NCBI GenBank assembly: GCA_041649135.1
Contig: JBAZNQ010000002.1
Location: forward strand, 1 to 39,237
From: Patescibacteria group bacterium
GTDB taxonomy: Bacteria > Patescibacteriota > Kazan-3B-28
Reading direction: 5' to 3'
Length of the DNA stretch: 39,237 nucleotides
Numbering within the stretch: position 1 is the first letter of the stretch; each line of letters opens with the position of its first letter. The notes below the pieces were generated by a model. The model was not told the DNA's origin. It made no database searches and worked only from the letters and a program-made list of their open reading frames with translations. This document shows positions 13,338 through 37,461 of the stretch, one piece after another. Made by a program: the position numbers and the translations under genes.

Positions 13338-13344
13338 CCTCTCG

Positions 13345-15229: not shown

Positions 15230-15457
15230 GTCATTGCGAGAAGCACGCGACGAAGCAATCTTTTGTTCTTCGCGAAACCCTGCGTCGGTACGTCCACCGT
15301 AGCTTCTTGACCGTCGTAGCCTTGGCGAAGTCGGTTGACCAGAATCTTATAAATACTTTTTTCATCCCGCATCATTCCCGTCCGCCCAACTAGTCGAATA
15401 AACTCCAGCGGGAATCCATTTTCTACCCACCTTGTCATTCCCGCGTAGGCGGGAATC
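15230..15457. repeat. Cluster of GTCA-tagged palindromes plus a 30-bp palindromic element
   Basis: GTCATTGC..GCAATC (15230-15260), CTTGACCG..CGGT (15306-15335), ATCATTCCCG..CGGGAATC (15371-15416) and GTCATTCCCGCGTAGGCGGGAATC (15434-15457). Confidence 0.85.
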
Positions 15458-16290: not shown

Positions 16291-16322
16291 AGAATAGAGA
16301 CAGCCACACCAGCCATCGCAGA

Positions 16323-16352: not shown

Positions 16353-16411
16353 CTAATAGAGCAAAACCGCTAGTGATATACTAGAGGCATCTTTGCCAAT
16401 TGGAGAAAGTT

Positions 16412-16597: not shown

Positions 16598-16633
16598 CCA
16601 CCAGGCTGTAACCACGGTCGTGGGTAGCACATT

Positions 16634-16668
16634 AAAACTTTCTCGTTCATCGAGAAAGTTTTTATTTC
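16634..16668 (+). terminator. Intrinsic terminator
   Basis: Perfect 12-bp stem AAAACTTTCTCG-ttcat-CGAGAAAGTTTT followed by TATTT. Confidence 0.7.
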
Positions 16669-16754
16669 ACCCACCCCCACCCTAATTCGACCATTCAACA
16701 AAGAAACATTCCTTAGCCATTAAATGAACGGCCGTTCAATATTCGGCGCCTCTC

Positions 16755-16960
16755 CTCCGCCATTGGAGGAGAGTCGTTCTGAATTGAGCTAAATTGACGC
16801 AGGCGAAGGCGTTGTCTGACGAGCCCTTAGGGCGAGGAGTTCGCCGAGAGCGAAGAAAGTCAATTTAGCCAATGAATAGACTCGACGACTGGCGGGCGAC
16901 TTTGGTTACTTTCCTCAAGTCGGAAAGTAACCATCCGGTTAAGCGGTGATGAGACCGCTT
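16755..16960. repeat. ~210-bp structured dispersed repeat, copy 1
   Basis: Blocks CTCCGCCATTGGAG, CGAAGGCGTTGT, GAGGAGTTCGCCGA, CTGGCGGGCG and GGTTACTTTCC..GGAAAGTAACC occur in the same order at 24399-24620. Confidence 0.85.
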
Positions 16961-16981
16961 AGAACAATAAACATAAAAATG

Positions 16982-17094
16982 GATTCCCGCCTTCGCGGGA
17001 ATGACAGGTTAAAGATTCTGAGCAAGGAACGTCTGACGTTCTAAGCCAGAATGACGGGGAAAGATTGCTTCGTCACTACGCTCCTCGCAATGAC
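16982..17094 (-). repeat. Three tandem GTCA-tagged palindromes of different subtypes
   Basis: GATTCCC..GGGAATGAC (16982-17005), GATTCTG..CAGAATGAC (17014-17055) and GATTGC..GCAATGAC (17063-17094). Confidence 0.85.
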
Positions 17095-17126
17095 AAAGAA
17101 CAAACAAAAGCCATCCACAAGACGAT

Positions 17127-19307
17127 CTACTTAGGCCATCTCGCAGAGATCAATTGACCCTCGTAGAGTTCCATCCAAACCGCTTCCGTCGCGAACGGCA
17201 CAAACGGGTGAAGTAACACAAGGGCGTTTCTTAATACGTGATGAAGCACTGCGGAAGCCGCCTCTTTGCGATTTTCATCTTCCAATTGGTCCTTGTATTC
17301 TTCAATAATTTTGTCACAGAAAGTATGCCAGAAGTAGTCGTAGATAAATTCCCCTGCCTGCCCCAGCTGGTACTTCTCCATCATCTTCGTCATCTCCGCC
17401 GCTGCCTCATCGAATTCCTTTAGCACCTCTCTGTCTCGTTCGTTCAGGGCAACATCCGTTATTCCAACTGTCCATCCCTTAATTCTTGATTCTTGATTCT
17501 TAATTCCAGACATAAACCTCGCCGCATTCCAAATCTTATTGGCAAAATTTCTGTACGCCCGAATTTTGTCTTCGGAGATATTGGTATCATTTCCTGCCGC
17601 CGTTCCCGCGATCAGCCCCATTCGCAGGGCATCTGCTCCGTACTTCTCCACCATCACCAGCGGGTCAATCACATTCCCTTTGGACTTAGAAATTTTTTGC
17701 CCATGATTGTCCCGTACCAATCCATTGAAAAATACCGTCTCAAATGGAACCTCACCAGTACAATACAGCCCCATCATTATCATTCTGGCAACCCAGAAGA
17801 AGATAATATCATAGGCGGTTTCCATCATGGTGGTAGGGTAAAAATATTTAAAATCAGCGGTTTTTTCTGGCCAACCCAAAGTCGTAAACGGCCATAAGCC
17901 AGAAGAAAACCAAGTGTCTAAAGTGTCCTCATCTTGTTTCATCTCGCACTTCCCACAAATCGGACATTTCTCTGGTCTTGTCTCCGCCACCACAAACTCT
18001 TCCTCCCCCCCATTGGACATTGGACATTGAACATTGGACATTATTCCGGTTTGGTTTTTACAATACCAAACCGGAACCCTATGTCCCCACCACACCTGCC
18101 GGCTAATGTTCCAATCCCGAATATTTTCCATCCAATTCGAGTAGATTTTTTCGAACCGCTCGGGAATAAATTTTATCTTGCCCGTCTTTACCGCCGCCAA
18201 TGCTGGCTTCGCCAATGGGGCGATTTTCACAAACCACTGTTTCGACACCTTGGGTTCCAATATGGTACCGCATTTCACACAATGACCCACACTATGAATA
18301 TGCTTCACCTGTTTTTCAATTAAGCTCTGCTCCTGCAGGTCTGCCAACACTTTCTCCCGTGCCTCTCCCACTTTCATTCCCGCATAACTACCAGCCGCTT
18401 CCGTCATTTTGTTTCGATCATCAATCACGGACATCAATGGTAGATTGTGCCTCTGCCCAATTTCAAAATCAGTCGGATCATGCGCCGGTGTTACTTTTAC
18501 CGCCCCAGTCCCGAACTCCTTGTCCACCGCCTCATCCGCAATTACCGGAATTTCCCTGTCCGTCAGCGGCAGTTTTACCATCTTCCCTACTACTTCTTTA
18601 TATCGCTTGTCATCGGGATTCACCGCCACCGCCGTATCTCCCAACATTGTTTCTGGTCGAGTAGTCGCCACCGTCACAAATCCAGAACCATCAGCCAATG
18701 GATATTTAATGTATGCCAACTGACCCTCCACTTCCTGATGCTCAACCTCCAAATCCGACAAGCCAGTCGCACACTTGCTACACCAGTTCACGATCCGCTC
18801 TCCTCGATAGATCAGCCCTTCGTCATACATTTTCTTGAAGGTGTAATACACCGCATGGCTCACGTCTGGGTCAAGGGTAAATTTACTTCGGCTCCAATCA
18901 CAGCTCGCCCCCAGCGCCCGTAGCTGGTTTTCCATGATCTTCCGTTTCTCATCCATATGTCGGCCCAATTCTTCCACAAATTTTTCTCTGCCCAATTCAA
19001 ACCGACTGATCCCTCTCTCCTTTTGCAACAACTTGTCAAAAAAAACCTGACTCCCTAGTCCAGCGTGATCTGCCCCAGGCAGCCACAAAGTCGGCTCGCC
19101 TTTCAGCCTGTGATATCGGATCATAATATCTTCCACCGTTACAAACAAAGCATGGCCAATATGTAATTGGTCATAGGCATTCGGCGGCGGCATGATGATC
19201 GTGTACGGCTTTTTACCCTCCTCTATTTTGGGTGTGAAAGCCCCCGTCTCTTCCCAGAGATGGTAAATTTTCTTTTCTAAATCAATAAAATTGAACGACT
19301 TGTCCAT
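17127..19307 (-). CDS. valS: Valine--tRNA ligase (short form)
   Basis: PPPN..LHIGHA, WLPGADHAG, ATTRPETMLGDTAVAVNP, GTGAVKVTPAHD, DWNISRQVWWGH, DTWFSSGLWP and KISKSKGN. Confidence 0.98.
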   Translation of the reverse strand: MDKSFNFIDLEKKIYHLWEETGAFTPKIEEGKKPYTIIMPPPNAYDQLHIGHALFVTVEDIMIRYHRLKGEPTLWLPGADHAGLGSQVFFDKLLQKERGISRFELGREKFVEELGRHMDEKRKIMENQLRALGASCDWSRSKFTLDPDVSHAVYYTFKKMYDEGLIYRGERIVNWCSKCATGLSDLEVEHQEVEGQLAYIKYPLADGSGFVTVATTRPETMLGDTAVAVNPDDKRYKEVVGKMVKLPLTDREIPVIADEAVDKEFGTGAVKVTPAHDPTDFEIGQRHNLPLMSVIDDRNKMTEAAGSYAGMKVGEAREKVLADLQEQSLIEKQVKHIHSVGHCVKCGTILEPKVSKQWFVKIAPLAKPALAAVKTGKIKFIPERFEKIYSNWMENIRDWNISRQVWWGHRVPVWYCKNQTGIMSNVQCPMSNGGEEEFVVAETRPEKCPICGKCEMKQDEDTLDTWFSSGLWPFTTLGWPEKTADFKYFYPTTMMETAYDIIFFWVARMIMMGLYCTGEVPFETVFFNGLVRDNHGQKISKSKGNVIDPLVMVEKYGADALRMGLIAGTAAGNDTNISEDKIRAYRNFANKIWNAARFMSGIKNQESRIKGWTVGITDVALNERDREVLKEFDEAAAEMTKMMEKYQLGQAGEFIYDYFWHTFCDKIIEEYKDQLEDENRKEAASAVLHHVLRNALVLLHPFVPFATEAVWMELYEGQLISARWPK

Positions 19308-19311
19308 AAGG

Positions 19312-20670
19312 CTAATCGGTAATCACATTGGCATTGTACCATCTGTACTTCTCCTGCTCGAAAGAAGGAGGGAGAGTAGTGAGCGTTTGTTTTCCCACGG
19401 GTGGAGTGGGGAGCAGGCGGCTAGTCCGAGCGTTAGCGAGGATTGGCTTTGCCAACCGCCGATGAGGGGAGGACACACCTCGTTCTTCCCTCATGGTAAA
19501 ATACGCCGCCGCCCCGATCATCGCCGCATTGTCGGTACAATATTTAAATTCCGGAATAACGATTTTCAGCCCTAGTTCATTGGCTCGTCTTTGAACCTCT
19601 TCCCGCAATCGCCGATTGGCCGATACTCCACCGCCAATGATAATCGTCTTCGCTTTATACTTCTTCGCCGCCTTCAGCAATTTAACGACCAATACCTCCA
19701 CCACCGCTTCTTGAAACTCCCACGCGATCTCCGCAATCCTCTTTTTGGTGATTGCTTGATTATTGGTTATTGGATATTGGATATTAGCCGCAACAGCGGC
19801 TGTTGCTGTTTTTAACCCCGAAAAGCTAAAATCAAAATTATCCTCGTCCATCATCGGCCTCGGCAACCTCACCCTTTCCCCTGCTTTGGTGCTTGGTGCT
19901 TGGTGATTGAGTATTGTTTGATTATTGGTTATTGGATATTGGATATTAGCCGCAGCAGCGGCTATTGCTGTTTTTAACCCCGAAAAGCTAAAATCAAAAT
20001 TATCCTCGTCCATCATCGGCCTCGGCAACCTCACCTCCCCCTCCTTCGTTTTTAACTTTTCACTTTTAACTTTTAACTTTGCGGCTTCAGCCGCAATCGC
20101 GGGTCCCCCCGGGTATCCCAGCCCCAAAATCCGAGCCACTTTATCGAATGCTTCACCTGCCGCATCATCACGGGTACCACCTACATATTTATATTCCCCA
20201 TCGCTCCTCGTCAGTACGATTTCTGAATGTCCGCCACTTGTTACTAATGAAACCAACGGATACTCAATTTTTTCATCCCCCAACCAACCAGCGTAGATAT
20301 GCCCCAGTAAATGATTCACCGAAATCACTGGCTTATCCCACAAATAGCCCAAAGTCTTGGCCGCATTTACACCCACCAACAAAGACCCCAATAACCCCGG
20401 ATCGGTCGTTACCGCGATCGCATCAATTTGTTTTGGGGCCAGCCCAGTTTTACGCAACGCCAACTCGATCAACGGATAAATCGCTTCCAAATGTTGGCGG
20501 GACGCTACTTCCGGCACCACTCCCCCGAACTCTGCGTGTAGTTTTTCCTGACTCGCCACCAAAGAAACCAAAACCTTCAGCCGCTCCCGAAGGGAAGCCT
20601 TTGGCCTCGTTCCTTCCACCACCGCCACCGCCGTATCATCACAAGATGATTCAATTGCTAAAATACGCAT
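19312..20670 (-). CDS. tsaD: tRNA N6-threonylcarbamoyltransferase TsaD, with an internal duplication and a C-terminal insertion
   Basis: ILAIESSCDDT, GGVVPEVASRQH, NHLLGH, SGGHS, TRDDAAGEAFDKVAR, DFSFSGLKT (twice) and CTDNAAMI. The likely start is the ATG at 20670. Confidence 0.96.
   Translation of the reverse strand: MRILAIESSCDDTAVAVVEGTRPKASLRERLKVLVSLVASQEKLHAEFGGVVPEVASRQHLEAIYPLIELALRKTGLAPKQIDAIAVTTDPGLLGSLLVGVNAAKTLGYLWDKPVISVNHLLGHIYAGWLGDEKIEYPLVSLVTSGGHSEIVLTRSDGEYKYVGGTRDDAAGEAFDKVARILGLGYPGGPAIAAEAAKLKVKSEKLKTKEGEVRLPRPMMDEDNFDFSFSGLKTAIAAAAANIQYPITNNQTILNHQAPSTKAGERVRLPRPMMDEDNFDFSFSGLKTATAAVAANIQYPITNNQAITKKRIAEIAWEFQEAVVEVLVVKLLKAAKKYKAKTIIIGGGVSANRRLREEVQRRANELGLKIVIPEFKYCTDNAAMIGAAAYFTMREERGVSSPHRRLAKPILANARTSRLLPTPPVGKQTLTTLPPSFEQEKYRWYNANVITD
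19756..20035. repeat. In-frame intragenic duplication in tsaD (118-bp copies, 162-bp offset)
   Basis: 19756-19873 versus 19918-20035, with two substitutions found on manual comparison. Confidence 0.92.
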
Positions 20671-20749
20671 TCCGAGCGAATTATACCATAAAAACATCAG
20701 TCTAGAAGCCACTTTTTGGTATACTATAGTTAGGTTCAATCTCCCTTCC

Positions 20750-20847
20750 CGTCATTCTGGCAAACCCCTCCCTCCGTCATTCTGGCAAACCCCTCGTTCC
20801 GTCATTCTGGCAATTCTGCCGTACGGCAGAAGCGACCAGAATCTTAT
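20750..20847 (+). repeat. 25-bp tandem repeat of a GTCATTCTGG element arm
   Basis: CGTCATTCTGGCAA occurs at 20750, 20775 and 20800. Only the last copy closes with CCAGAATC. Confidence 0.85.
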
Positions 20848-20889
20848 AGAAAATGCGCCAAAGGCGCCACCAAAACTCTTCATCGCAGA

Positions 20890-21000
20890 TCCTCCGTAGC
20901 CTCGGCGTAGGAGGACTACCCAAACCTATTTCTCTCTTCTCTCTTCTCTCTTCTCTCTTCTCTCTCCTCTCTATTCTCTACTCTCTAATCTTTCCCCTCT
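20890..21000. repeat. 30-bp palindrome followed by a polypyrimidine tract
   Basis: TCCTCC-GTAGCCTCGGCGTA-GGAGGA-CTAC (20890-20919), then CTCTCTT arrays (~20926-21000) ending at the ATG at 21001. Confidence 0.85.
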
Positions 21001-22011
21001 ATGCGCCTCATCACTCCTACTCCTGAAACTTGGGACAACTATCTCATCAAAAATGAGCTTGGTCATTTTCTCCAAAGTTGGGCTTGGGGTGAGTTCCAAG
21101 AAAAGCTTGGTAATAAAATTTGGCGATTAGTAGTTGAAGACAACGGGCAAATTATTACCCAGCTTTTAGTAATCAAATTGAGTTTGGGGTTTGGTCAGTC
21201 CATTCTCTACTCCCCTCGTGGCCAACTGATTAATAAAAATCGTTCTCTCACCGCCACCCAAGCTGGTATCGCCTTGCTGCTTCAAGAGATTAAAAAAATT
21301 GCCACCCAAGAAAAAGTAGTTTGTTTTCGAATTGATCCCCCAGCCCCCGCCGATGATCTCACCACCGAACGCTTTTATGCTTCTAGCGGTTTTGTCAAAA
21401 ACCCCAAGTCCATTCAACCGCTCCACTCATTGATCCTCGACCTTCACCCAACCCCCGAACAATTACTCGCCACCATGAAAACCAAGACCCGCTACAATAT
21501 CCACATTGCCGAAAAGCACGGCATTACTGCCACCAAGTCTGACCATCCTTACGACTTCGATAAATTCCTAGAGCTCACCCGTGCTACCTCCGGTCGACAA
21601 GGATTCGCTTCCCATTCTGAAAACTATTACCGCACCCAATTTAATGTTCTCCACACAGCCAACCTGCAGGACCTTTGGGTTGCCCGTCATCAAGATAAAG
21701 CTATCGCCGCTATTCTAGTTAATTATTTTGGCGATACCGCTACTTATGTTCATGGCGCCTCCGACCACTCTCAACACGAACTCATGGCACCCCACCTGCT
21801 CCAGTTTGCGGCCATTCAAGATGCCCGCCGCCGTGGTTTTGCTCGCTACGATTTTTGGGGCATCAACCCTGACCCCAATCATCCTTGGGCTGGATTCACA
21901 CGATTCAAACGCGGGTTTGGCGGTACCGAGATTAAATATATCGGCACTCTAGAGCTCCCCATCAATCCCCTGTTATATAAATTGTATCGGCTCGTCAGCC
22001 GTTTACACTAA
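21001..22011 (+). CDS. FemABX family peptidoglycan interpeptide bridge enzyme
   Basis: HFLQSWAWGEF, LYSPRG, KTKTRYNI, YVHGAS, YDFWGI and GFTRFKRGFGG, adjacent to murE. Confidence 0.92.
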   Translation: MRLITPTPETWDNYLIKNELGHFLQSWAWGEFQEKLGNKIWRLVVEDNGQIITQLLVIKLSLGFGQSILYSPRGQLINKNRSLTATQAGIALLLQEIKKIATQEKVVCFRIDPPAPADDLTTERFYASSGFVKNPKSIQPLHSLILDLHPTPEQLLATMKTKTRYNIHIAEKHGITATKSDHPYDFDKFLELTRATSGRQGFASHSENYYRTQFNVLHTANLQDLWVARHQDKAIAAILVNYFGDTATYVHGASDHSQHELMAPHLLQFAAIQDARRRGFARYDFWGINPDPNHPWAGFTRFKRGFGGTEIKYIGTLELPINPLLYKLYRLVSRLH

Positions 22012-22063
22012 GCCACAAGAGCATAGAGAGTAGAAAGCATCTCATCTCTCATCTCTACCCATC

Positions 22064-23401
22064 ATGAAGAAACTTCTCAAAAAAATCCTAGGCCGGGCCT
22101 TCTCCCCTCAATCGTTTCTTTACGACACCTACCACAAAACTCGCGGCATGACCGCCGCTATGTTGTATGGTTTCCCCGCCCGCAAAATGATCGTCATCGG
22201 TATTACTGGCACCAACGGCAAAACTACTACCGCCAATTTGCTTGGCCAAATCCTAGAAACTACAAACGAGAAAATTGGACTGGCAACTACCGTCAATTTC
22301 TGGATTGGCCACAAGCGCTGGATCAATGAAACCAAAATGACGACCTTCAGCCCCTTCAAACTCCAAAGCCTTTTAAAAGAAATGTCCCAAGCCGGTTGTC
22401 GTTACGCCATCGTCGAAACCTCCTCCCACGCCATCGCCCAACATCGTACTTGGGGCATTGACTACGACGTAGCGGTTTTTACCAACCTCACTCCCGAGCA
22501 TCTCGACTTTCACCCTACCTTCGAACATTACCGCAATACCAAACTCCGACTTTTCAAAAGTTTATTTCGCTCTCGCCGAAAAACTAATACCCCCAAAATT
22601 GCCGTCATCAACTTTGACGATCCAGTTGCCAGTCATTTTGCCCAAGTTCCGGCTGACCAAAAATTTTTCTATTCAATTAACAAGCTTGAAACTAACGACA
22701 CCAAAGAAAGTCCCATTACCGCCAATATTATCCATGCCGACGAGTCCAGCACGACTTTCGATTTAAACACCCCCTTCGGGAAAACTTCTATTACCCTACA
22801 TCTCCCAGGCCGTTTTAATGTTAGCAATGCTCTGGCCGCCGCCAGCACCGCCCTTGGGCTTGGCATACCTTTAGAAAAAATCAAGCAAGGGTTGGAACAA
22901 GTTAAAGTCGTCCCTGGCCGAATGGAACGCATCGAAGCTGGTCAGCCCTTCACTGTCATTGTTGACTATGCTCATACTCCCGATGGTTTTGAACAAGTTC
23001 TCTCCACCACCCGTTCGTTTACCAAGGGCAGGCTTATTACCGTATTCGGTGCCGCTGGTAATCGCGACAAAACTAAACGTCCAAAATTAGGCGAGATCGC
23101 CAGCCGCTATGCTGACGTTTTAGTCTTAACTGAAGAAGACCCCGCCAACGAAGATCCAAACCAAATCATTGAGGCGATCAAGTCCGGCATCCCAGCTCGT
23201 TTTCGCGATGATGACAATCTCTTCACTATCCTCTCTCGCCCAGACGCTCTCCGCCACGCCTTCAAGCTTGCCCAGCCGTCAGATACTGTGATGCTATTAG
23301 CCATGGGTGCTCAAACCAAGATGGCTGTAAAAACTGGCCTCATCCCCTATGATGAACGAGACTTCGCCCGAAATCTGCTACACTCAATAGTGAACCGCTG
23401 A
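22064..23401 (+). CDS. murE: UDP-N-acetylmuramoyl-tripeptide synthetase MurE
   Basis: GITGTNGKTTT, ETSSHAIAQHR, FTNLTPEHLDFH, PGRFNVSNALAA, PGRME, VDYAHTPD and VFGAAGNRDKTKRP. Confidence 0.93.
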   Translation: MKKLLKKILGRAFSPQSFLYDTYHKTRGMTAAMLYGFPARKMIVIGITGTNGKTTTANLLGQILETTNEKIGLATTVNFWIGHKRWINETKMTTFSPFKLQSLLKEMSQAGCRYAIVETSSHAIAQHRTWGIDYDVAVFTNLTPEHLDFHPTFEHYRNTKLRLFKSLFRSRRKTNTPKIAVINFDDPVASHFAQVPADQKFFYSINKLETNDTKESPITANIIHADESSTTFDLNTPFGKTSITLHLPGRFNVSNALAAASTALGLGIPLEKIKQGLEQVKVVPGRMERIEAGQPFTVIVDYAHTPDGFEQVLSTTRSFTKGRLITVFGAAGNRDKTKRPKLGEIASRYADVLVLTEEDPANEDPNQIIEAIKSGIPARFRDDDNLFTILSRPDALRHAFKLAQPSDTVMLLAMGAQTKMAVKTGLIPYDERDFARNLLHSIVNR

Positions 23402-23472
23402 TAAAAATACCCCCTCCATCAGTCCACCAGTCCATTTGTCTATTAGTCTATAAAAACTATAAGTCTAACCAT

Positions 23473-24315
23473 ATGATCGAATTTGATCAAAACCTCAATC
23501 CAGTCGAACCACCAAAACCAAACAATCCATTTACTCCTCCACCAGTCATGCCGTCACCCACTCCTCGAACATCCATGACTCCACCGAATGGTCGTGGTTT
23601 AGGTTTGGTCTTGGGCGTTGTTGGTATCATCGTAGTTGCCGCCGTATTGTTGATCACTCTCGGTGCCAGACCCTCAACTACTACTGGCCAAATGGAAGGT
23701 TTAAGCGTCAACGCTGACGCTACTGTTTACGCTTCTCCCGACATTGCTCGGGTGAACGTTGGTATCGTCAAGACAGCCAAAACTGTGTCTGAAGTCGAAA
23801 AGGCTTTGTCGGATGCTTCCACTACTATTCAACAAGCCATCATTGATGCTGGAGTAAAAGAAGCGGACATTAAAACTGTCGATTACAGCATCTATCCAGA
23901 ACAAACTTACGTTAACGGTTCCGTCAGCCGCATCACCGGCTATAGTGGCCGTCATAGTATGGAAGTTACTATTCGTGAGCTCGACAAAACCGATACTGTG
24001 TTGTCTAGCGTTACTGCCGCTGGCGCCAACGAAGTCGGCCAACTTACCTTCACTCTTGAAAATCCAGACGACAAGTTGGCTGAAGCCCGCAAAGAGGCCA
24101 TGAAGAAGGCAAAGGACAAAGCTAAACAAATCGCCAAGGACGGCGACTTCACTTTAGGAAGATTGATTTCTGTTAATGAATATTCCAACACCCCCAGCCC
24201 AATGTATGACTACACTAAGGGTTCGGGTATGGGTGGTGCTGAAGTTACTCCCAGCACCGAGTCCGGCAGTCTCGCAATGCAGGTCAACGTTACTCTGGTC
24301 TACAAAATTCGCTAA
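23473..24315 (+). CDS. SIMPL (DUF541) domain protein
   Basis: TM segment followed by VYASPDIARVNVG, DIKTVDYSIYP, AGANEVGQLTF and LGRLISVNE. Confidence 0.88.
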   Translation: MIEFDQNLNPVEPPKPNNPFTPPPVMPSPTPRTSMTPPNGRGLGLVLGVVGIIVVAAVLLITLGARPSTTTGQMEGLSVNADATVYASPDIARVNVGIVKTAKTVSEVEKALSDASTTIQQAIIDAGVKEADIKTVDYSIYPEQTYVNGSVSRITGYSGRHSMEVTIRELDKTDTVLSSVTAAGANEVGQLTFTLENPDDKLAEARKEAMKKAKDKAKQIAKDGDFTLGRLISVNEYSNTPSPMYDYTKGSGMGGAEVTPSTESGSLAMQVNVTLVYKIR

Positions 24316-24357
24316 CCAGCAAAACTGTCCTGAAACATCGAAACAACTTTTAGTCTT

Positions 24358-24385
24358 AAAAGAGATGGCCACCGCCATCTCTTTT
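24358..24385. terminator. Bidirectional intrinsic terminator
   Basis: AAAAGAGATGGC-cacc-GCCATCTCTTTT, a perfect 12-bp stem downstream of the SIMPL gene. Confidence 0.8.
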
Positions 24386-24398
24386 ATTCCCCTGCTGT

Positions 24399-24620
24399 CT
24401 CCGCCATTGGAGTCCGAGCGTCCTGAATTAGCAAAATTATCGCAGCGAAGGCGTTGTTTGACGACCAGAGGGAGGAGTTCGCCGAAAGCGAAGAAAGCTA
24501 AGTTTGTTATGGCGAACAATCGCAACGACCCCAAAGGGGAGCCTTAGGCTCTGGCGGGCGGCTTTGGTTACTTTCCCCAAGAGGAAAGTAACCGCCGGTT
24601 CAGCGCGGCGCAGAGCGCTG
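24399..24620. repeat. ~210-bp structured dispersed repeat, copy 2
   Basis: Colinear with 16755-16960 and carries the 11-bp inverted repeat GGTTACTTTCC/GGAAAGTAACC at 24566-24593. Confidence 0.85.
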
Positions 24621-24699
24621 GAAAGAAAAATAAACAAGCAGAAAGTGCCAATTGGTCGAGCGCAATTTGGCGCTCGCCCCCCCACCCCTGTGTAAGGGG

Positions 24700-24705
24700 T
24701 ATAAT
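24700..24705 (+). promoter_or_regulatory. -10 box 6 nt upstream of the polA ATG (possible leaderless mRNA)
   Basis: TATAAT-aagcct-ATG with no Shine-Dalgarno sequence. Confidence 0.5.
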
Positions 24706-24711
24706 AAGCCT

Positions 24712-26880
24712 ATGGCAAATAAAAAGAAACTAGTCCTCATCGACGGCAACGCATTGGTTCATCGTGCCTTCCACGCTTTCTCCCGAGCCAATCTCGCTTC
24801 CCCCAGTAGTCAACCCACCGGCGCTATTTATGGTTTTGCCGTGATGTTAATTAATATCTACACTCGCCTCAAGCCCGACTACATTGCTGTAGCCTTTGAT
24901 ACCGACGCCCCAACTTTCCGCCACAAAGAATATGTCGAATACAAGGCCACTCGCATCAAAGCTCCGCAAGAACTCTACGACCAAATCCCAGAAATCCAAG
25001 CCCTAGTCGAGAGCTTCAATATTCCCATTTTTCTAAAAGACGGTTTCGAAGCCGATGACATTATCGGCACTCTTGCCCGCCAAGCTCCCAGTACGCTCGA
25101 CACCTACATTTCCACCGGCGATATGGACGCTCTCCAATTAGTGAACGACCATACTTTTGTCTACGCTCCTCGCAAGGGTTTTTCCGACATTATTGTCTAC
25201 ACTCCCGAAGAAGTTTTAAAAACTAAAGGCCTCCGCCCCGACCAAATCATCGACTTCAAAGGTCTCCGTGGCGATCCTTCCGACAACATCCCCGGCGTCG
25301 CGGGTATTGGCGAAATCACCGCCCTGAAACTCCTGCAGGAGTTTGGTGACTTAGAAAACATCTACAAAAATCTGGAGCAGATTTCCGGCACCGTTGCCGA
25401 AAAGTTAAAGAAGGGTGAACAGGACGCGATCAAAAGTAAGGGGCTAGCCACCATTCACACCACTATTCCCATCAAGCTAGATTTAGACAAGGCCGAGGCT
25501 ATCGCTTTTGATAAATTCCGGGTTGCTGAATTCTTTCGCCGAATGGGCTTCCGAACTCTTTACGACAAAATCCCCGCCGGCACGCTGACGACGGGAGGGC
25601 AACCATCTTTTTTTGACAAAGCCCAGCCCAAGTTAATAAAAACTGGGGCTGGGGAAAACCAGCTCATAAAAGATCTCGACAAAAAACTCGACCCCATTCT
25701 TCGCAAGATGGAGAAGGCGGGCATTTTGTTGGATATCAAGCTGCTTAATGATTTAAATACCCAGCTCTCCACCCGCATCGAGAAGTTGAAAAAGAATATC
25801 TACAAATATTCCAAAGTTGAATTTAACATCGCCTCCCCTAGCCAACTGGGAAACTTCCTATTTAAAGAACTTAAGCTCCCAACCCTAGACATTGGCAAAA
25901 CCCAGAAAGGCTATTCCACCGCTGTGTTGGAGCTGGAAAAAATCTACCGCGAACATCCCGTCATCAAACACATTTTGGAATTCCGCCAACTCGAAAAACT
26001 CCGCAATACCTACCTCGAAACTCTGCCCAAATTAGTCGACAAGAATAATCGGGTACACACCACTTACGCGCAGGATACTTCCACCGGCAGACTTTCCTCC
26101 AAAGAACCAAACCTTCAAAACATTCCTATCCGAAGCGAAATTGGCGCCGAACTTCGTAAAGCGTTTATCGCCCCCAAAGGCTTTCGCTTAATCTCCGCCG
26201 ACTACTCCCAAATCGAGCTCCGCGTTATCGCCTCACTCGCCCACGATGTCCGCATGATTCGCACTTTTAATAAAGGCGAGGATATTCATACTGCCGTCGC
26301 TGCCGAAGTTAATGGCGTCAAATTAAAGGACGTCACCAAAGATATGCGCCGCAATGCCAAAACCATCAATTTCGGAATTATCTATGGTGTCTCCCCCTAC
26401 GGCCTCGCCGCTCGGACGAATATGACCATCCATCAAGCCACTAATTACATTCACAAATACTTCGAACTTCATCCCGAGATCAAACAATATATGGAAGATA
26501 CCGCCGCATATGCGAAGCAACACGGCTATGTCGAAACTTTGTTTGGCCGTCGTCGCTACATCCCCGAAATCCGCTCCAAGATTCCGGCGGTTCGTTCCGC
26601 CGCCTCTCGTGCCGCTATCAATATGCCAGTCCAAGGCACTGCCGCCGACTTACTTAAAGCCGCCATGATCGAGCTTGCCAAAGCCTTACCTAAAGTCAGT
26701 CCCGATTCTCGGATGCTTCTCCAAGTCCACGACGAACTGGTACTGGAAGTCCCGACTAAGGATATTAAAAAAGTCGCCACTCTCGTCCGTAACAAGATGG
26801 AAAATGTCTATCACCTCGATGTCCCCATTCACGTCGACATCGAAGCTGGTGTAAACTGGGGAGAAACTAAAAAGATATGA
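24712..26880 (+). CDS. polA: DNA polymerase I (5'-3' exonuclease plus polymerase, no proofreading domain)
   Basis: LIDGNALVHRAFHA, FEADDIIGT, GDPSDNIPGV, STGRLSSKEPNLQNIP, ADYSQIELR, AKTINFGIIYG and LQVHDEL. The ATG at 24712 is preferred as start. Confidence 0.97.
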   Translation: MANKKKLVLIDGNALVHRAFHAFSRANLASPSSQPTGAIYGFAVMLINIYTRLKPDYIAVAFDTDAPTFRHKEYVEYKATRIKAPQELYDQIPEIQALVESFNIPIFLKDGFEADDIIGTLARQAPSTLDTYISTGDMDALQLVNDHTFVYAPRKGFSDIIVYTPEEVLKTKGLRPDQIIDFKGLRGDPSDNIPGVAGIGEITALKLLQEFGDLENIYKNLEQISGTVAEKLKKGEQDAIKSKGLATIHTTIPIKLDLDKAEAIAFDKFRVAEFFRRMGFRTLYDKIPAGTLTTGGQPSFFDKAQPKLIKTGAGENQLIKDLDKKLDPILRKMEKAGILLDIKLLNDLNTQLSTRIEKLKKNIYKYSKVEFNIASPSQLGNFLFKELKLPTLDIGKTQKGYSTAVLELEKIYREHPVIKHILEFRQLEKLRNTYLETLPKLVDKNNRVHTTYAQDTSTGRLSSKEPNLQNIPIRSEIGAELRKAFIAPKGFRLISADYSQIELRVIASLAHDVRMIRTFNKGEDIHTAVAAEVNGVKLKDVTKDMRRNAKTINFGIIYGVSPYGLAARTNMTIHQATNYIHKYFELHPEIKQYMEDTAAYAKQHGYVETLFGRRRYIPEIRSKIPAVRSAASRAAINMPVQGTAADLLKAAMIELAKALPKVSPDSRMLLQVHDELVLEVPTKDIKKVATLVRNKMENVYHLDVPIHVDIEAGVNWGETKKI

Positions 26881-27557
26881 CAGTAGAACACGCCTTAGCC
26901 CGAAGACAGAGCTGGGGTCAAATGCTAGGTCGGTTAGGAGACCTACTATTCAGCAATGCCCTGACCGATTCCGTCCTCAGAGAACCATCACACAGAGCCG
27001 CACTAGACAAACTAGGACGGGTTAGAATATTAATGAAGAAAATTGGTGAAATATACCAAAAGAACCAAATCAATAATATTGACCTAAAAGTCCTAGAGAC
27101 ATACATAGATTCTCTCTTATTCCTGATAAGAAGTACCTACGATCTGAGTGCGCAGGTACTGAGGAAGAGAGTTCCTAATAGTATCACTCTGCCAGTCAGT
27201 CTCGCTAAAATTGAAAAGATGCTTCAAAGCAATACTATTAGTTTACCGCATACCCTAGACACACTAACCCCCGCCCATTCAGGATTTAAAATGATTAAAA
27301 CCTTAAGAGATGAAGCCAAGATGGGAAGGGCAATTTTATCACTCTATAAGAAACGGGAATCTATCTTTATTAAGGTTAAGACGCCACAACAAAAAGTTAT
27401 TTTACACCAAGAGCTCACCACCTTTTTAAACTGGCATCTACTCTGGCTACACCTCAGCCTCAGTTCCTTTTTTATAGATCTTTTCGGGGAAAACCTGTTC
27501 AACCAACATGTAAAGATTCCCAGAAGAGAATTTATTAAATTAGTAAAAAATGCCTGA
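26877..27557 (+). CDS. Hypothetical protein, AT-richer than its neighbours
   Basis: 226-aa ORF overlapping the polA stop (ATGA). Helical, with weak HEPN-like resemblance but no intact RxxxxH. Confidence 0.55.
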   Translation: MTVEHALARRQSWGQMLGRLGDLLFSNALTDSVLREPSHRAALDKLGRVRILMKKIGEIYQKNQINNIDLKVLETYIDSLLFLIRSTYDLSAQVLRKRVPNSITLPVSLAKIEKMLQSNTISLPHTLDTLTPAHSGFKMIKTLRDEAKMGRAILSLYKKRESIFIKVKTPQQKVILHQELTTFLNWHLLWLHLSLSSFFIDLFGENLFNQHVKIPRREFIKLVKNA

Positions 27558-27639
27558 GCTCACCCCCACCCACGACGCCACCAAACCCTCATTTTTGGTT
27601 AGATTGGTGAGATTGGGATAAATTGTTTAGATTATCTCT

Positions 27640-28170
27640 ATGTCCCGCACCATCATCGAAATCAAAGCCCGCACCAACCAGCCCGACAAGATTCGGGAGA
27701 CTTTAAAAAATCTTGGTGCCGACTTCAGAGGCATCGACCACCAAATTGATACCTACTTCAAAGTCACTTCTGGCCGCCTCAAGCTTCGTGAAGGCAACAT
27801 TGAAAATCATTTAATCTACTACCAGCGTCCCGACCAAGCTGGCCCAAAACAATCAGATGTCATCCTCCTCCCCACCGGGCCCAACTCACCCATTAAAGCC
27901 ATCCTCACCCAATCAATGGGTGTCTTGGCTGTCGTCGATAAACATCGCGAAATCTACTTCATCGACAATGTAAAATTCCACATCGACCAAGTTGTAAACC
28001 TTGGCTCATTTATGGAGATTGAAGCTATTACCAACAACGACGAGCTCACCCGCGACCAACTCCTCGCCCAATGCGAACACTACAAAAAACTCCTCGAAGT
28101 TACTGACTCCGACCTCCTCGAAAAATCCTATAGTGACATGGTTCTTTCCCAGTCCACCCCCATTGATTAG
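27640..28170 (+). CDS. CYTH domain / class IV adenylate cyclase-like protein
   Basis: EIKAR, HQIDTYF, RLKLREG, VVDKHREIY, FHIDQV..LGSFMEIEA and KSYSDM. Confidence 0.9.
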   Translation: MSRTIIEIKARTNQPDKIRETLKNLGADFRGIDHQIDTYFKVTSGRLKLREGNIENHLIYYQRPDQAGPKQSDVILLPTGPNSPIKAILTQSMGVLAVVDKHREIYFIDNVKFHIDQVVNLGSFMEIEAITNNDELTRDQLLAQCEHYKKLLEVTDSDLLEKSYSDMVLSQSTPID

Positions 28171-28178
28171 ATTGTCAT

Positions 28179-28268
28179 AGACCCTTCGTCTTGTCCACCA
28201 TAGCTCTCGACCTTCGTAGCCTTGGCGAAGTAGGTTTAGCGACGGTGGAAGCTTTAGCGAAGTAGGGG
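28179..28268. repeat. Three nested 30-bp palindromic elements
   Basis: Removing 28190-28249 restores a 30-mer identical to 31723-31752. Removing 28206-28235 restores the middle 30-mer. Confidence 0.85.
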
Positions 28269-28301
28269 TGAAGATTGGAATAAATTGGTTAGATTATCCT
28301 T

Positions 28302-29252
28302 ATGCCCGAGCTCCCCGAAGTCGAAACCGTCGTCCGCGGCCTCTCCCGACATATCGTCGGGCAAAAAATCAAAACCATCCACGTCCTCACCAAAACCAGC
28401 TTCTCTGGTCTACCAGTCCATAAGTCTATTGGTCTATTAGTCAAATCCGTTTCCCGCCGCGGCAAAGGCATTATCATCGAGCTTGCGAAGCCCGGCGTAG
28501 CTCGCAAGGGCGAAGACGGGTCGAACTCCTTATCTCTCCTCATTCATTTAAAAATGACCGGCCAGCTCATTTGGGTTCCCCCCATCCGCCGTCGCTCAAA
28601 GAGCTATGGCGGACATCAACGGCTTAACTTTGGTCATCCTACGGATGACTTCACAAATAGTATGCCGTCTCGACACACTCGGGTTTGGTTCGAATTAACC
28701 CCCAAAGGGGCCCCTTCGGGGCAAAGGCACACCAATTATTTGTACTTCAACGATATGCGCCGGTTTGGTTGGGTTAAACTCACCCCCACCGCCGAAATCT
28801 CCAAAGACAAATTCTTCTCCAAACTCGGATTAGAACCTTTCGACAAAAACTTCACCCCCGCTTTTTTATATACCGCCATTCAACATCGGCCAAAGAGCAA
28901 TATTAAAGCCATCATCCTAGACCAAACTCTAGTTACCGGCATCGGCAACATCTATTCTGATGAGGCCCTTTTTTATGCCGGCATAAAACCTACTCGACTA
29001 GGACGTTCTATTACCAAAGCCAACACCACTAAATTAGTTTCTGCCATCAAAAAGGTGCTAACAAAAGGCATCAAGTATTCTGGCACCAGCATTAATACTC
29101 ACCGCACCCCCGAAGGTTCGATGGGCCAAATGCAAAACTACCTCGCCGTTTACGACCGCAAGGGTCAACCCTGCCGCAAGTGTAAAACCCCAATCATCAA
29201 AATCCGCGTCGCTAGTCGCGGCACCCATTACTGTCCAAGTTGTCAGCTATAA
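28302..29252 (+). CDS. mutM: Formamidopyrimidine-DNA glycosylase with repeat-derived insertions
   Basis: MPELPEVET, RRGK, HLKMTGQL, NDMRRFG, LDQTLVTGIGNIYSDEALF and Zn finger CRKC...CPSCQ. Confidence 0.96.
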   Translation: MPELPEVETVVRGLSRHIVGQKIKTIHVLTKTSFSGLPVHKSIGLLVKSVSRRGKGIIIELAKPGVARKGEDGSNSLSLLIHLKMTGQLIWVPPIRRRSKSYGGHQRLNFGHPTDDFTNSMPSRHTRVWFELTPKGAPSGQRHTNYLYFNDMRRFGWVKLTPTAEISKDKFFSKLGLEPFDKNFTPAFLYTAIQHRPKSNIKAIILDQTLVTGIGNIYSDEALFYAGIKPTRLGRSITKANTTKLVSAIKKVLTKGIKYSGTSINTHRTPEGSMGQMQNYLAVYDRKGQPCRKCKTPIIKIRVASRGTHYCPSCQL

Positions 29253-29288
29253 GCTCAAGCAGCAATCGCACCTGCCACAAATAACAGC

Positions 29289-30308
29289 CTAGCGAATGGA
29301 GTTGACAATAATTTGGGCTGTCGCTTGTTGGCCAGAAGAACCGTACTCTACTTGGACTACAAAATTATGTTCATTGATTACAAAATACCGATTGATTTCG
29401 GCATCTCCGTTTCGAATGGCGACATACTTGTAATCCCTTCCTCGCGTTGTTTTCATTAGCGAGGAAATAATTGGTTCCCCCCAACTTGAGCTAAGACCAG
29501 CAATAAAGTTCGATATAGCTGAATCTATAGACGTACCTGCTTGTTTGGTCAGAGAAACACTAATAGGATAATCTCCGCTCCAAGATAGTGTGGGATTGTT
29601 GAGATTTAGTAGCACTACATAAGAACCAGTGGTAGGAAATTCCTCTGAAGCAATCTGCCAGCTGCTGGGATAATCAAATACAAAATCCGTACCCTGCGGA
29701 GAATATGTAGACAAAGACCCGCCCCCAATAATAAACCTAGTGAATATGTCAGCTGAATCAAAAGCTAATAGCTTACCATTCCAAGCGATCTGCGCAGTCC
29801 AGCTTTGATACTCGTAGACTGGACGGAAGTAGAGATCGTAAGTGCCATTGCTGGCAGAGTTTGCGATCTTTACATTCCAAGAAATAGTAAATTGGGCATT
29901 TGGAGCCACATCTAAGCCATCGTAATACGCCATCCGATTGCCATTCAGCACAAAGCTTGAAGCATCCAGCCATGGAGTTTGGGCATCGCCGCGAACACCA
30001 ATGGCATAAGAACCGACCGGGACTTGCTTGCCGGCAGGAACCGTACCCAAAGAGGTCTTATTTCTAATTGTCGTATTCGACATATTTTGTAAGGTCACTG
30101 ACATAGCGACAGTATCGCCTTGGTTAGCAGTAACGTAGTGAGCTTTGCCATCGGCTGTGATTTGAGCTGGAGTTTGACCAACCCATCTATAATGATAAGT
30201 GTCAGCCGCAGAAGCAATCTGCGTTGGAATAATCATCCAAGCAGTAATCACACCAGTCATCACCAAAGAACCGACCTGTGATAATTTTTTAAGAAGTAAG
30301 TTGCGCAT
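29289..30308 (-). CDS. Secreted protein with an Ig-like (NBR1-Ig-like) domain and a PsbP-like C-terminal domain
   Basis: Signal peptide ending ASA-AD, YRWVGQ...VTLQN...GTYDLYFRPVYE...W pattern, then YSPQGTDFVFDYPSSW. Confidence 0.65.
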   Translation of the reverse strand: MRNLLLKKLSQVGSLVMTGVITAWMIIPTQIASAADTYHYRWVGQTPAQITADGKAHYVTANQGDTVAMSVTLQNMSNTTIRNKTSLGTVPAGKQVPVGSYAIGVRGDAQTPWLDASSFVLNGNRMAYYDGLDVAPNAQFTISWNVKIANSASNGTYDLYFRPVYEYQSWTAQIAWNGKLLAFDSADIFTRFIIGGGSLSTYSPQGTDFVFDYPSSWQIASEEFPTTGSYVVLLNLNNPTLSWSGDYPISVSLTKQAGTSIDSAISNFIAGLSSSWGEPIISSLMKTTRGRDYKYVAIRNGDAEINRYFVINEHNFVVQVEYGSSGQQATAQIIVNSIR

Positions 30309-30393
30309 AATTAGTTAAGAGAGTTTTGTCCAATATAGCTACACTAATCATACACCCAACCACTCTGTCAGAAATAACGCGCATTTCCCAGCG

Positions 30394-30498
30394 CGTCATC
30401 CCCGATTTAGTCGGGGATCCAGAAAGAAAAAAGAAATATAAAGTGGAAACAAAAAATGTTTTTGTTCTTTTCTAGATTCCCACTTTCGTGGGAATGAC
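30394..30498. repeat. Convergent pair of GTCA-tagged palindromes
   Basis: CGTCATCCCC..GGGGATC (30394-30419) and GATTCCCAC..GTGGGAATGAC (30475-30498) flank an A-rich spacer. The second unit lies in the recF 3' end. Confidence 0.85.
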
Positions 30499-31587
30499 AG
30501 GGTTTATACTGCCGCCCTCAACCATATTCACCGCCGGCTGCTCGAATAGCTCGGCTATTTGCTTATCATTAGTAGTTACAAAACTTTGGACCCCCACTAA
30601 TGCCCGTGCCAACTTAGCCTGCCGCTCATCATCTAATTCTGAAAAAATGTCGTCTAGTAAGTAAACCGGAGCATCATGAAGCTTGGTTTTTAGTATCTCT
30701 CCTTCCGCCAGTTTCAATGCCATCACCGCACTCCGGAACTCCCCCCGTGAGGCCGCCGCCCGCATGTCATCACCATTCAAAATAAACAGCACATCATCCC
30801 GATGAATGCCTTTGGTGGTATTGGCCCGAACAACATCCATCGATCTCGCTCCCGCCAATCCCGCCCCATACATTTTCGGTGTCTCAAAATTTAAACTCGG
30901 CACGTAAGAAATTTTCAAAATATCTCCCGATTCCCCGAACCAGTCATGGTAATACTGGTTCGCCAATCGCCCCACTTCTTCCATTGCTTGTTTGCGCTTT
31001 TCTACAATTCGCGCCCCCAATTCACTCATCTTCTCATCCCAAACTTCCAACTCTCCCTCCCCACTCCGACCTTGTTTAATCATCAATAAAAGTTGATTGC
31101 GCTGACGCAGCACCTTCCAATAATCCACTAGGTCCTGTCCGTATTCCAAATCAAACCTAGCGATCAATAAATCCAAAAACTTCCGCCGTTTCTGTGGGCT
31201 CAACCGGATTAGATCAATATCTTCTGGTGAGAATAATACTACCGGCATTTGTCGAATTATCTCCACCCGCTGGACAACCACCCCATTTAGCTTCGTCGTC
31301 TTACGCGCGAATCCTCCTTCCATCATCCAGATCATTTCCGCCCGCTTTATTTCCCCGTCTTTTTCAAACTCAAATTCCACCCTCGCAAATTCCTGCCCAT
31401 GTTGAATGAGTGAACGCTCATTACTCACCCGAAATGACCCCCCTGCCGCCACCGCGAACATCCCCTCCAAAATGTTCGTTTTGCCCTGTGCATTCCTCCC
31501 CACCAAAATATTCGCACCTGAAACTGGAGTTAATTCAATTGGCCCCAGATTCCGAAACTGCTGGAATTTAGCTTTAATAATCTTCAT
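30472..31587 (-). CDS. recF: DNA replication and repair protein RecF
   Basis: QQFRNL, Walker A GRNAQGKTNILE, VVLFSPED, RRKFLD, GIHRDD, ASRGEFRS and YLLDDIFSELD. Confidence 0.96.
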   Translation of the reverse strand: MKIIKAKFQQFRNLGPIELTPVSGANILVGRNAQGKTNILEGMFAVAAGGSFRVSNERSLIQHGQEFARVEFEFEKDGEIKRAEMIWMMEGGFARKTTKLNGVVVQRVEIIRQMPVVLFSPEDIDLIRLSPQKRRKFLDLLIARFDLEYGQDLVDYWKVLRQRNQLLLMIKQGRSGEGELEVWDEKMSELGARIVEKRKQAMEEVGRLANQYYHDWFGESGDILKISYVPSLNFETPKMYGAGLAGARSMDVVRANTTKGIHRDDVLFILNGDDMRAAASRGEFRSAVMALKLAEGEILKTKLHDAPVYLLDDIFSELDDERQAKLARALVGVQSFVTTNDKQIAELFEQPAVNMVEGGSINPVIPTKVGI

Positions 31588-31589
31588 CT

Positions 31590-31752
31590 CGTCCTTCTGG
31601 CTCTTGACCGTCGCAGCCTCGGCGTAGTCGGTTGCCCAGAATCTTATCGCTTATCTTCTATACGATTCTGGCGTCGCTTCACTCCCCAGAATGACATTTT
31701 GCCGCTTTGGTTAGATTGTCGCAGACCCTTCGTAGCTTTAGCGAAGTAGGGG
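31590..31752. repeat. Composite repeat cluster between dnaN and recF
   Basis: CGTCCTTCTGG..CCAGAATC (31590-31643) containing the 30-mer 31603-31632, an inverted GATTCTGG..CCAGAATGAC (31664-31695), and the 30-mer at 31723-31752. Confidence 0.85.
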
Positions 31753-35363: not shown

Positions 35364-35448
35364 ACTAATTAAAAAATAATCGTAGTTCTGCCATTAGGCA
35401 GAACCTCCAAAACTTTTCACTCATCACTTTTAACTTTTCACTTCCCTC

Positions 35449-37359: not shown

Positions 37360-37416
37360 TAACCAAATATCAAATAACAAGTACCCCAATATAAACAATT
37401 AGTCATTCAACTCCCG

Positions 37417-37461
37417 TTCTCTCTTCTCTCTTCTCTCTTCTCTATTCCCTACTCCCTACCC
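37417..37461 (+). repeat. Polypyrimidine heptamer tract upstream of the flippase ATG
   Basis: (TTCTCTC)x3 followed by CTATTCC/CTACTCC/CTACCC, directly before the ATG at 37462. Confidence 0.85.

Follow-up and report, generated by a model that had tools for sequence, protein, structure and literature searches.

Short hairpin repeats in frame within mutM of a Patescibacteria genome: probable absorption at three protein loops and reshuffling by recombination

The DNA analysed here, referred to as the window, is a stretch of 39,237 nucleotides from a Patescibacteria group bacterium of the Kazan-3B-28 lineage (GenBank assembly GCA_041649135.1, contig JBAZNQ010000002.1), and the gene in question is mutM (fpg), which encodes a DNA glycosylase of DNA repair. 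It is probable that a working mutM has absorbed short hairpin-forming DNA at three permissive loops of its N-terminal domain, with two of the inserts, A and B, deriving from one repeat family, and with the inserts being reshuffled by recombination. A preliminary description, made from the sequence of the window, had proposed up to four repeat-derived inserts in the gene. DNA alignment with relatives supports three of these as inserts (A, B and C), while the fourth, a tandem array upstream of A, adds only a single codon.

The identity of the gene is clear. The protein has three Pfam domains, all above their cut-offs (Fapy_DNA_glyco, H2TH and zf-FPG_IleRS), and matches solved MutM/Fpg structures in the PDB with E of about 1e-40. 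The motifs are present at Pro2/Glu3, Lys55, the H2TH domain (residues 175-266) and the zinc finger (Cys291, Cys294, Cys311 and Cys314), and Pro2, Glu3, Lys55, Met85, Arg153, Phe155 and the four cysteines are conserved or invariant in alignments. Domains, catalytic and intercalating residues and fold all place the protein among the Fpg/MutM DNA glycosylases and, as had been stated, the catalytic Pro2/Glu3, the H2TH and the zinc finger are intact. The N-terminal Pfam domain nevertheless takes up 157 residues (1-157) against a profile of 117 positions, and the PDB alignments leave out residues 63-145.

The closest named relatives are metagenome-assembled genomes (MAGs) of candidate division Kazan or Patescibacteria. 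The close relatives of the protein are 53-77% identical to it and 285-353 residues long; it exceeds the shortest of them (285-286 residues) by 31, and in an alignment of 30 sequences the length differences cluster at few positions. We read the DNA of 14 relatives, obtained through exact-protein look-ups (a metagenome scan gave only relatives of at most 41% identity among the matches listed), and compared the proteins of 119. The close relatives L081 (protein P0002) and L083 (P0008) served as insert-free references for A and B; L082 corresponds to P0005. The orthologue alignment suggested in the preliminary description finds extra residues at A, B and C relative to insert-free relatives, and these account for the whole excess: 12 in A, 8 in B, 10 in C and 1 in the array make 31, which is 316 minus 285. 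As in the Rickettsia palindromic elements (RPEs), the inserts (36, 24 and 30 nt) are in frame, free of stop codons and at positions compatible with the fold. Site A holds an insert in 16 of the 119 relatives, site B in 58 and site C in 9, the basal loop lengths predominating. The same three loops thus appear to be hit repeatedly in relatives, and by several repeat families.

Insert A reads CCCGGC-GTAG-CTCGCAAGGG-CGAAG-ACGGG followed by TCGAAC, a hairpin unit in the sense orientation. The 30-nt segment CCCGGCGTAGCTCGCAAGGGCGAAGACGGG, encoding PGVARKGEDG, had been proposed as an insert at 28491-28520; it is real, and forms part of 36 nt that are extra relative to L081 and L083. The inner hairpins at this site vary between relatives and yet pair: GCTC-GCAA-GGGC in the window, GCTC-GAAA-GAGC in L082 and L166, GCT-AAA-AGC in L168, GTC-AAA-GGC in L167 and an 8-bp palindrome in L001.

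Insert B, TCCGCCGTCGCTC-AAA-GAGCTATGGCGGA, runs from TCCGCC to GGCGGA and gives this loop 16 residues where insert-free relatives have 8. Read in reverse complement it is TCCGCC-ATAG-CTCTTTGA-GCGAC-GGCGGA; site B copies in general follow YCCGCC-ATAG-inner hairpin-GCGAC-GGCGGR on that strand, and the copy in L169 has the canonical GTAG...CGAAG tags. The reported match between the reverse complement of B and the middle one of three nested units upstream of mutM is borne out, the arms being 94% (16 nt) and 87% (15 nt) complementary. Site B also receives other families, in the form of GTCAT-headed hairpin pairs that resemble the CGTC/NTS type (L170/L171, L166/L002 and L165/L001). L004, P0026, P0052 and P0060 have 50-67 extra residues here, made up of several repeat-type peptides in a row (e.g. 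...RHSGEPLGRLQNRMNKSIRSWTSQDDPPSPKGYGGLR), which suggests stacked or nested insertions in a coding loop.

In an alignment of A with the intergenic copies described below 90.2% of the cells are paired, against 29-47% with the partners slid, and in the B alignment 97.6% against 33-46%; three pairs have changed on both sides in each, and the covariation score was reached by 0 of 500 shuffles in either, though such controls are weak for related sequences and for structures drawn from the same data, so that we count them as support and not as proof. Six of seven B copies retain a G.T position whose pairing is confined to the sense strand. The RNA fold of the B hairpin has an energy of -19 kcal/mol (z = -4.9); for A and C the fold energies do not improve on shuffles of the same G+C-rich composition.

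The spacers of the window are crowded with small repeats, and in these the architecture of A and B recurs. The family unit, of about 30 bp, consists of an outer stem of 4-6 bp, a G/A-N-A-G tag, a mini-hairpin of 2-4 bp, a CG-N-A-G or GCGAC tag and the closing arm of the outer stem; the intergenic copies, which we call GNAG hairpins, are laid out as outer stem, G[TAC]AG, C[CT]T[TC][GA]GC, G[AT]AG, outer stem. A pattern scan of the window found 8 intergenic copies, all on the + strand. A structural scan, which demanded both tags and an outer stem of at least 4 bp, gave 11 matches, whereas 40 dinucleotide shuffles gave 2.05 on average and never more than 6; 7 of the 11 are intergenic, 2 are weak coding matches and the remaining two are A and B. 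An Rfam scan of the window returned three tRNAs only, with no family covering the hairpins.

The three nested units upstream of mutM show how the units behave. When the outer one is rejoined it matches the free copy at 31723-31752, between recF and dnaN, at 30 of 30 positions, and the block inserted into it is exactly 60 nt. It is split between the T and the A of its GTAG tag, with no target duplication. The perfect match of the rejoined unit and the exact length of the block are good evidence that units of the family move as discrete 30-bp blocks without target duplication.

Dispersal was also followed in the contigs of two metagenomes, the landfill run from which the window comes (X1) and a groundwater run unrelated to it (X2), with which 55-nt stretches were compared. 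The B unit has sharp edges, at 28583-28615, and X1 and X2 each contain six more contigs that match it, on one strand or the other, at 1-3 differences and between flanks that are unrelated; among these contigs are high-depth unitigs of 33-35 nt, typical of repeats. The A unit (about 28489-28522) was seen once outside mutM, in X2, within AT-rich unrelated flanks. The architecture shared with the intergenic copies, the compensatory pairing and the dispersed copies with unlike flanks together support A and B being in-frame copies of one dispersed hairpin repeat, their translation being deduced from the frame. The proposed search for the element peptides in other proteins, run in six frames on the window and 171 loci, pointed to no gene besides mutM; apart from that it picked up a single spurious 59-codon frame over an intergenic copy.

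Table 1. Positions of mutM, its inserts and related repeats in the window
Feature	Position	Strand	Details
mutM/fpg open reading frame (ORF)	28302..29252	+	316 aa, intact; ORF list, Pfam, PDB matches, AlphaFold (AF2) model, Foldseek
Octamer array	28401..28442	+	GTCYAYNN, about 5 units, encodes GLPVHKSIGLLVKS; repeat family D3
Recombination tract	28404..28670	+	aa 35-124, P0005/L082-like, holds array, A and B, in P0002/L081-like gene
Insert A	28491..28526	+	36 nt, residues P64-N75 (PGVARKGEDGSN); absent from L081, L083, L170, L003, L169, L004
Insert B	28585..28613	-	Hairpin unit antisense to gene; encodes I95-G104 (IRRRSKSYGG); net +24 nt, +8 residues
Insert C	28701..28730	+	30 nt, residues P134-H143 (PKGAPSGQRH); DNA alignment; shared with L081
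Three nested 30-bp units, mutM upstream spacer	28179..28268	+	Middle one is the closest relative of B in the window
Intergenic GNAG hairpin copy	2235-2272	+	Pattern and structural scan
Intergenic GNAG hairpin copy	15310..15335	+	Pattern and structural scan
Intergenic GNAG hairpin copy	16323-16348	+	Pattern and structural scan
Intergenic GNAG hairpin copy	20890-20915	+	Pattern and structural scan
Intergenic GNAG hairpin copy	28210-28235	+	Pattern and structural scan
Intergenic GNAG hairpin copy	31607-31632	+	Pattern and structural scan
Intergenic GNAG hairpin copy	31726-31751	+	Pattern and structural scan

Insert C is missing in 12 of the 14 relatives read at the DNA level and is common to L081. 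It includes a 22-nt quasi-palindrome, or twin mini-hairpin, CCCCAAAGGGGCCCCTTCGGGG, which is CCCCAAAGGGG-CCCCTTCGGGG at 28700-28721, and holds an internal direct repeat, CAAAGG. The distant P0032 has a peptide resembling that of C, and another type, PTRLPAHSLT..., recurs at this site; both hint at elements at site C as well. The preliminary description had read the twin CCCC/GGGG hairpins as repeat-derived. They do form part of a genuine palindromic insert, but dispersed copies of C were found neither in the window and 171 loci nor in the X1 and X2 contigs, which leaves it, on present sequence comparisons, a palindromic insert of uncertain source whose origin from a repeat is unproven. Segments at 24529-24548 and 20585-20604 resemble C at 80-85% over 20 nt, which we judged too weak to make them members of a family with it. 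Target-site duplications were considered both here, where CAAAGG flanks 13 nt, and at A, where GCGAAG flanks 25 nt, and were rejected, as neither encloses an in-frame unit or matches the insert boundaries.

The array upstream of A is of a different kind. It reads TGGTCTAC CAGTCCAT AAGTCTAT TGGTCTAT TAGTC, and its period is 8 and not 7, so that the original term "heptamer array" does not hold: with a lag of 8 it matches itself at 20 of 29 positions, against a mean of 7.2 (sd 2.4) over 33,360 coding windows, none of the others scoring as high. That value is equalled only by two intergenic arrays (15523-15572 and 23411-23456), which are built of the same GTCYAY unit and closely precede start codons; the repeat family shared with mutM lies in these at 15527-15568 and 23415-23456. 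The region has 27 residues where relatives have 26, about 39 nt being replaced, and is modelled as ordered core with a predicted local distance difference test (pLDDT) score of about 97. As the net gain is a single codon and the model is well ordered here, the array is not an insert as had been claimed; it appears to be DNA of a non-coding type within mutM that overwrote residues 36-49 without lengthening the protein. The same array peptide is present in L082/P0005 and in P0019, and no copies were found in the contigs of X1 and X2 at 85% likeness or above. Elsewhere in the window, long tandem arrays of 7-8-nt units lie directly 5' of many start codons (TCTCTCT/TCTCTAC, TTTTCAC/TTTTAAC and GGTTAGATT, at 13326-13567, 20917-21000, 37406-37461, 35414-35443, 27597-27639 and 28271-28301), one of them spanning 240 nt.

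The gene is a mosaic. Over residues 35-124 the window protein is 85% identical to P0005 and 59% to P0002, and over residues 125-316 it is 89% identical to P0002 and 66% to P0005. Nucleotide identities in the tract outside site B are 78-91% to the P0005-like side against 50-73% to the other, and are reversed beyond the tract. In the triplet of the window, L081 and L082, informative sites favour L082 by 67:9 inside gene nt 103-369 and L081 by 145:49 outside; the maximum chi-square of 88 was reached by 0 of 200 permutations, and trees of the segments are incongruent. One breakpoint, at 28403/28404, coincides with the start of the array; the other, at 28670-28679, is some 30 nt short of C. The P0005 backbone is 91% identical to that of P0036, which is without the tract, so the same insert-laden tract sits on two backbones; it is 85% identical between them while the backbones are only 66% identical, and each backbone has a partner of 89-91% identity that is without it. 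These comparisons show the window allele as a donor tract of about 270 bp, with array, A and B, joined to a backbone that carries C. The preliminary description had seen in the high density of inserts an RPE-like process acting intensely on one gene. The density instead reflects recombination and not four fresh hits: the inserts appear old and inherited, array, A and B having arrived on one tract and C with the P0002-like backbone. Recombination can also explain the patchy distribution of A on the gene tree without many independent hits.

An AlphaFold (AF2) model built from the 119-sequence alignment has a mean pLDDT of 91.4 and superposes on MutM-DNA complexes with target-normalised Foldseek TM values of 0.90-0.92. 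In the model strands 56-62 and 77-82 flank A, strands 87-92 and 108-111 flank B, and strands 126-133 and 145-151 flank C. All three are thus in loops between strands of the N-terminal domain, as had been anticipated; block pLDDT is 70-88 at these loops and the core fold is kept. The strands that follow A and C lead to the intercalating residues (Met85 after A, Arg153/Phe155 after C), while the strand before B begins just past Met85 and runs away from it. From this topology we infer that the far end of the sandwich, opposite the DNA, would hold all three loops. We also considered whether the inserts are bypassed in translation or spliced out, and rejected this, as all are multiples of 3 nt and stop-free and read-through is simpler. 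Right after site B, all 119 Patescibacteria relatives have about 15 further residues (window residues 107-125, RLNxGHPxxDFxxxMPS), with Gly111 and His112 invariant, that are absent from the Bacillus and Lactococcus MutM proteins in the PDB alignments; this segment may stem from a far earlier insertion into that loop which has since been domesticated.

The course of events that we favour would run as follows. Units of the GNAG family, strewn through the intergenic DNA, would land anywhere in the genome and, inside genes, selection would spare only those copies that are in frame, free of stop codons and in surface loops. The survivors would be translated as loops rich in Gly, Pro, Arg and Ser. 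The inserts would be old, being common to lineages of only 53-77% protein identity; their pairing would be kept by compensatory or hairpin-templated changes, and homologous recombination over short tracts would reshuffle them between lineages.

Several observations weigh against this account. In 62 kb of DNA flanking mutM in the relatives no other family copies with stems of at least 5 bp were found, and the mutM copies in those genomes may perhaps be relics. None of the 10 window ORFs tested is a transposase or nuclease, RAYT/Y1 and ssn included, and the inserts have neither a target duplication nor a defined target motif. No insert-free allele of the strain was seen in the assembled contigs of the source metagenome, which drop rare variants. 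The outer stems are identical in all site A copies, which fits a single ancient insertion better than repeated hits. For C there is no second copy in the window or the 171 loci besides the orthologous one in L081, nor any dispersed copy with a likeness of 85% or more in the X1 or X2 contigs. That the inserts are translated is deduced from the frame and from the required N-terminal catalytic proline and not from observation.

The conserved pairing could also be explained if the hairpins were kept in mutM for a role as nucleic acid, as a nuclease or recombination site, a DNA-uptake signal or an mRNA structure, and so were selected and not just tolerated. We think this unlikely. It would account for double compensatory changes across lineages of 53-77% protein identity, for the retained sense-strand G.T position, for the seven unnested intergenic copies sharing one DNA strand whatever the gene direction, and for a tract running from the array to some 30 nt short of C; related NTS hairpins are, moreover, targets of the single-strand nuclease Ssn, which modulates transformation in Neisseria (PMC11893778). 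However, with 102 of the 119 relatives lacking an insert at site A, and about half lacking one at site B, nothing essential depends on the hairpins, and the fold energies of A and C do not stand out from shuffles. The strand bias comes from seven copies only, all on one side of the presumed origin. Quasi-palindrome templated mutation can also hold arms complementary without selection.

A bolder proposal, which we hold to be doubtful, is that the GNAG palindrome is an undescribed mobile hairpin family of Patescibacteria, which would move as a discrete single-strand unit with no target duplication, nest in its own tag or loop, have the pairing of its mutM copies selected and, together with the octamer arrays, mark or promote short recombination tracts by which gene segments laden with inserts are shuffled between lineages. 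If it were true the repeats would act as recombination or nuclease signals within coding DNA and would not be inert passengers.

That the inserts are ordinary lineage-specific loop indels of local origin, by slippage or template-switch inverted duplication, with GC-rich palindromes being easily found, is distinctly improbable. In its favour, C has an internal repeat and no dispersed copies, the array adds only one codon, and the fold z-scores of A and C are unremarkable. Against it, A and B have a specific tagged architecture in common with intergenic copies, the structural scan gave 11 matches where shuffles gave a mean of 2.05, the B unit recurs in two metagenomes with sharp boundaries and unrelated flanks, and other recognisable families, such as the GTCAT-headed pairs, occupy the same site in relatives.

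It is scarcely credible that inserts or mosaic are artefacts of MAG assembly (collapsed repeats or strain chimeras): although the short-read contigs of the source run break near repeats, at 28361, 28479 and 28502, and related strains coexist in the sample, its contigs overlap across 28216-29300 with no differences and an even depth of 25.7, the reading frame is kept throughout, and the same inserts occur in independent assemblies (L082 from ENA, L165 from JGI, L166 to L168 from Logan or ENA). Two candidates for insert-free alleles in the source run were set aside: a 60-nt "skip" at 28189-28250, for which the paralogous free copy at 31723-31752 is the simplest explanation, and low-depth joints, which derive from other strains.

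Absorption of dispersed hairpin DNA, the reading we prefer, has precedents. RPEs are the classic case of palindromic repeats in frame within genes (Ogata et al, 2000, as summarised in PMC10969869 and PMC3733652). Going by these summaries the likeness lies in intergenic palindromes that also occur in frame in a housekeeping gene of a reduced genome, and in extra surface peptides compatible with the fold; RPE-1 types, though, are about 100-150 bp and the short RPE-4/6, which one of them equates with CGTC REPs, are CGTC-tagged, whereas the units here are of about 30 bp, have internal GNAG tags and reside in a Patescibacterium. The mutM inserts fail the CGTC/SRM pattern, the units are 3-5 times shorter than RPE-1, and a relationship in sequence to RPEs is improbable. 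Of the Rickettsia-like process originally proposed, the part that stands is that A and B appear to be in-frame copies of a dispersed hairpin; the likeness would be one of process and not of family membership.

Intragenic GTAG and CGTC REPs, many of them in genes of DNA synthesis and repair, have also been described (Di Nocera, De Gregorio & Rocco, 2013, PMC3733652). Like the present units they are small hairpins (20-40 bp) whose stems vary in a compensatory manner and include G.T pairs, some copies lie inside repair ORFs, and in Xanthomonas recB different repeats occupy about the same site of orthologous genes; mutM is not among the REP-carrying genes named in the main text of that paper. REPs have one unpaired tag, placed at an end of the stem-loop, GTAG-REPs having a terminal GTAG and a 6-13 bp stem-loop, whereas here both arms are tagged, inside the outer stem, with GTAG, GAAG, GCAG or ATAG, and the inner stem is of 2-4 bp. 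The NTS/dRS3/SRM elements, associated with Ssn GIY-YIG nucleases (Chenal et al, 2025, PMC11893778), come closer at site B of the relatives, which holds GTCAT-headed pairs in L170, L171, L166, L002, L165 and L001; the window inserts, unlike these, have no (C/T)GTC-AT head. The published SRM search pattern, HGTCWYN(0-2)YYVSBRHN(0-5)WNVSBRGN(0-2)RNCYNB (tag, AT-started stem of 8-9 bp, loop of 4-5 nt, tail), has two intergenic matches in the window, canonical and NTS/dRS3-like (15433-15460 and 16979-17006), against a shuffle mean of 0.22, and matches none of the mutM inserts in the window or the 14 relatives, which places these outside CGTC REP/NTS/SRM. Because the pattern fails and the tags stand on both arms inside the outer stem, A and B are best filed, on their sequence, under neither the GTAG-REP nor the CGTC/SRM superfamily. 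Nothing relevant came up when the full-text literature was searched for REPs of the Candidate Phyla Radiation. Hairpin-defined units, the lack of target duplication, nesting in tag or loop and the one-strand bias also recall the "peel and paste" of IS200/IS605 and REP/RAYT, though with no Y1 transposase among the window ORFs tested, transposition would be by analogy only.

The kind of event is already known, from RPEs and intragenic REPs; the host is new, and the hairpin family may be so. What is added is a differently built family, three recurrent landing loops, pairing kept in coding DNA and a load of inserts due to recombination. The case joins a short list of proteins grown by translating selfish hairpin DNA, in a superphylum whose genomes are very small and where pressure is thought to act on every base. 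One enzyme has three loops that serve as landing pads for several unrelated repeat families, with half of the 119 relatives occupied at B, and short-tract exchange of inserts between lineages may explain patchy patterns on gene trees. Odd Gly/Pro/Arg-rich loops in Patescibacteria (candidate-phyla) proteins may often be repeat-derived, which is a warning for annotation, and for enzymology the relatives mark three positions of Fpg that tolerate 8-60 extra residues.

mutM lies next to recF, dnaN, dnaA and rpmH, which identifies the locus as the replication-origin region; the window has a G+C content of 47.5%. All seven unnested intergenic GNAG copies (15310-31751) are on the + strand, irrespective of how the flanking genes run, two of them antisense to dnaN-recF, and all seven lie on one side of the presumed origin, marked by a DnaA-box-like TTATCCACA at about 34499. 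The 3' end of recF (30472-30500, - strand), ending ...NPVIPTKVGI*, falls within a dRS3/NTS-like palindrome, ATTCCCAC-TTTC-GTGGGAAT, and here a hairpin repeat would seem to supply the C-terminal residues and the stop codon.

Two copies of a further intergenic element, of about 200 nt and 80% identical, are found at 16740-16935 and 24385-24595. It has several hairpins, e.g. GGTTACTTTCC..GGAAAGTAACC, gives no match in Rfam and could be an unannotated small RNA or a miniature inverted-repeat transposable element. The ORF of tsaD (19312-20739, - strand) encodes 474 residues as called and matches its Pfam domain in two stretches; at 19751-20035 it contains a 123-nt direct repeat, 98% identical and spaced 162 nt, which amounts to an in-frame tandem duplication of 54 residues.

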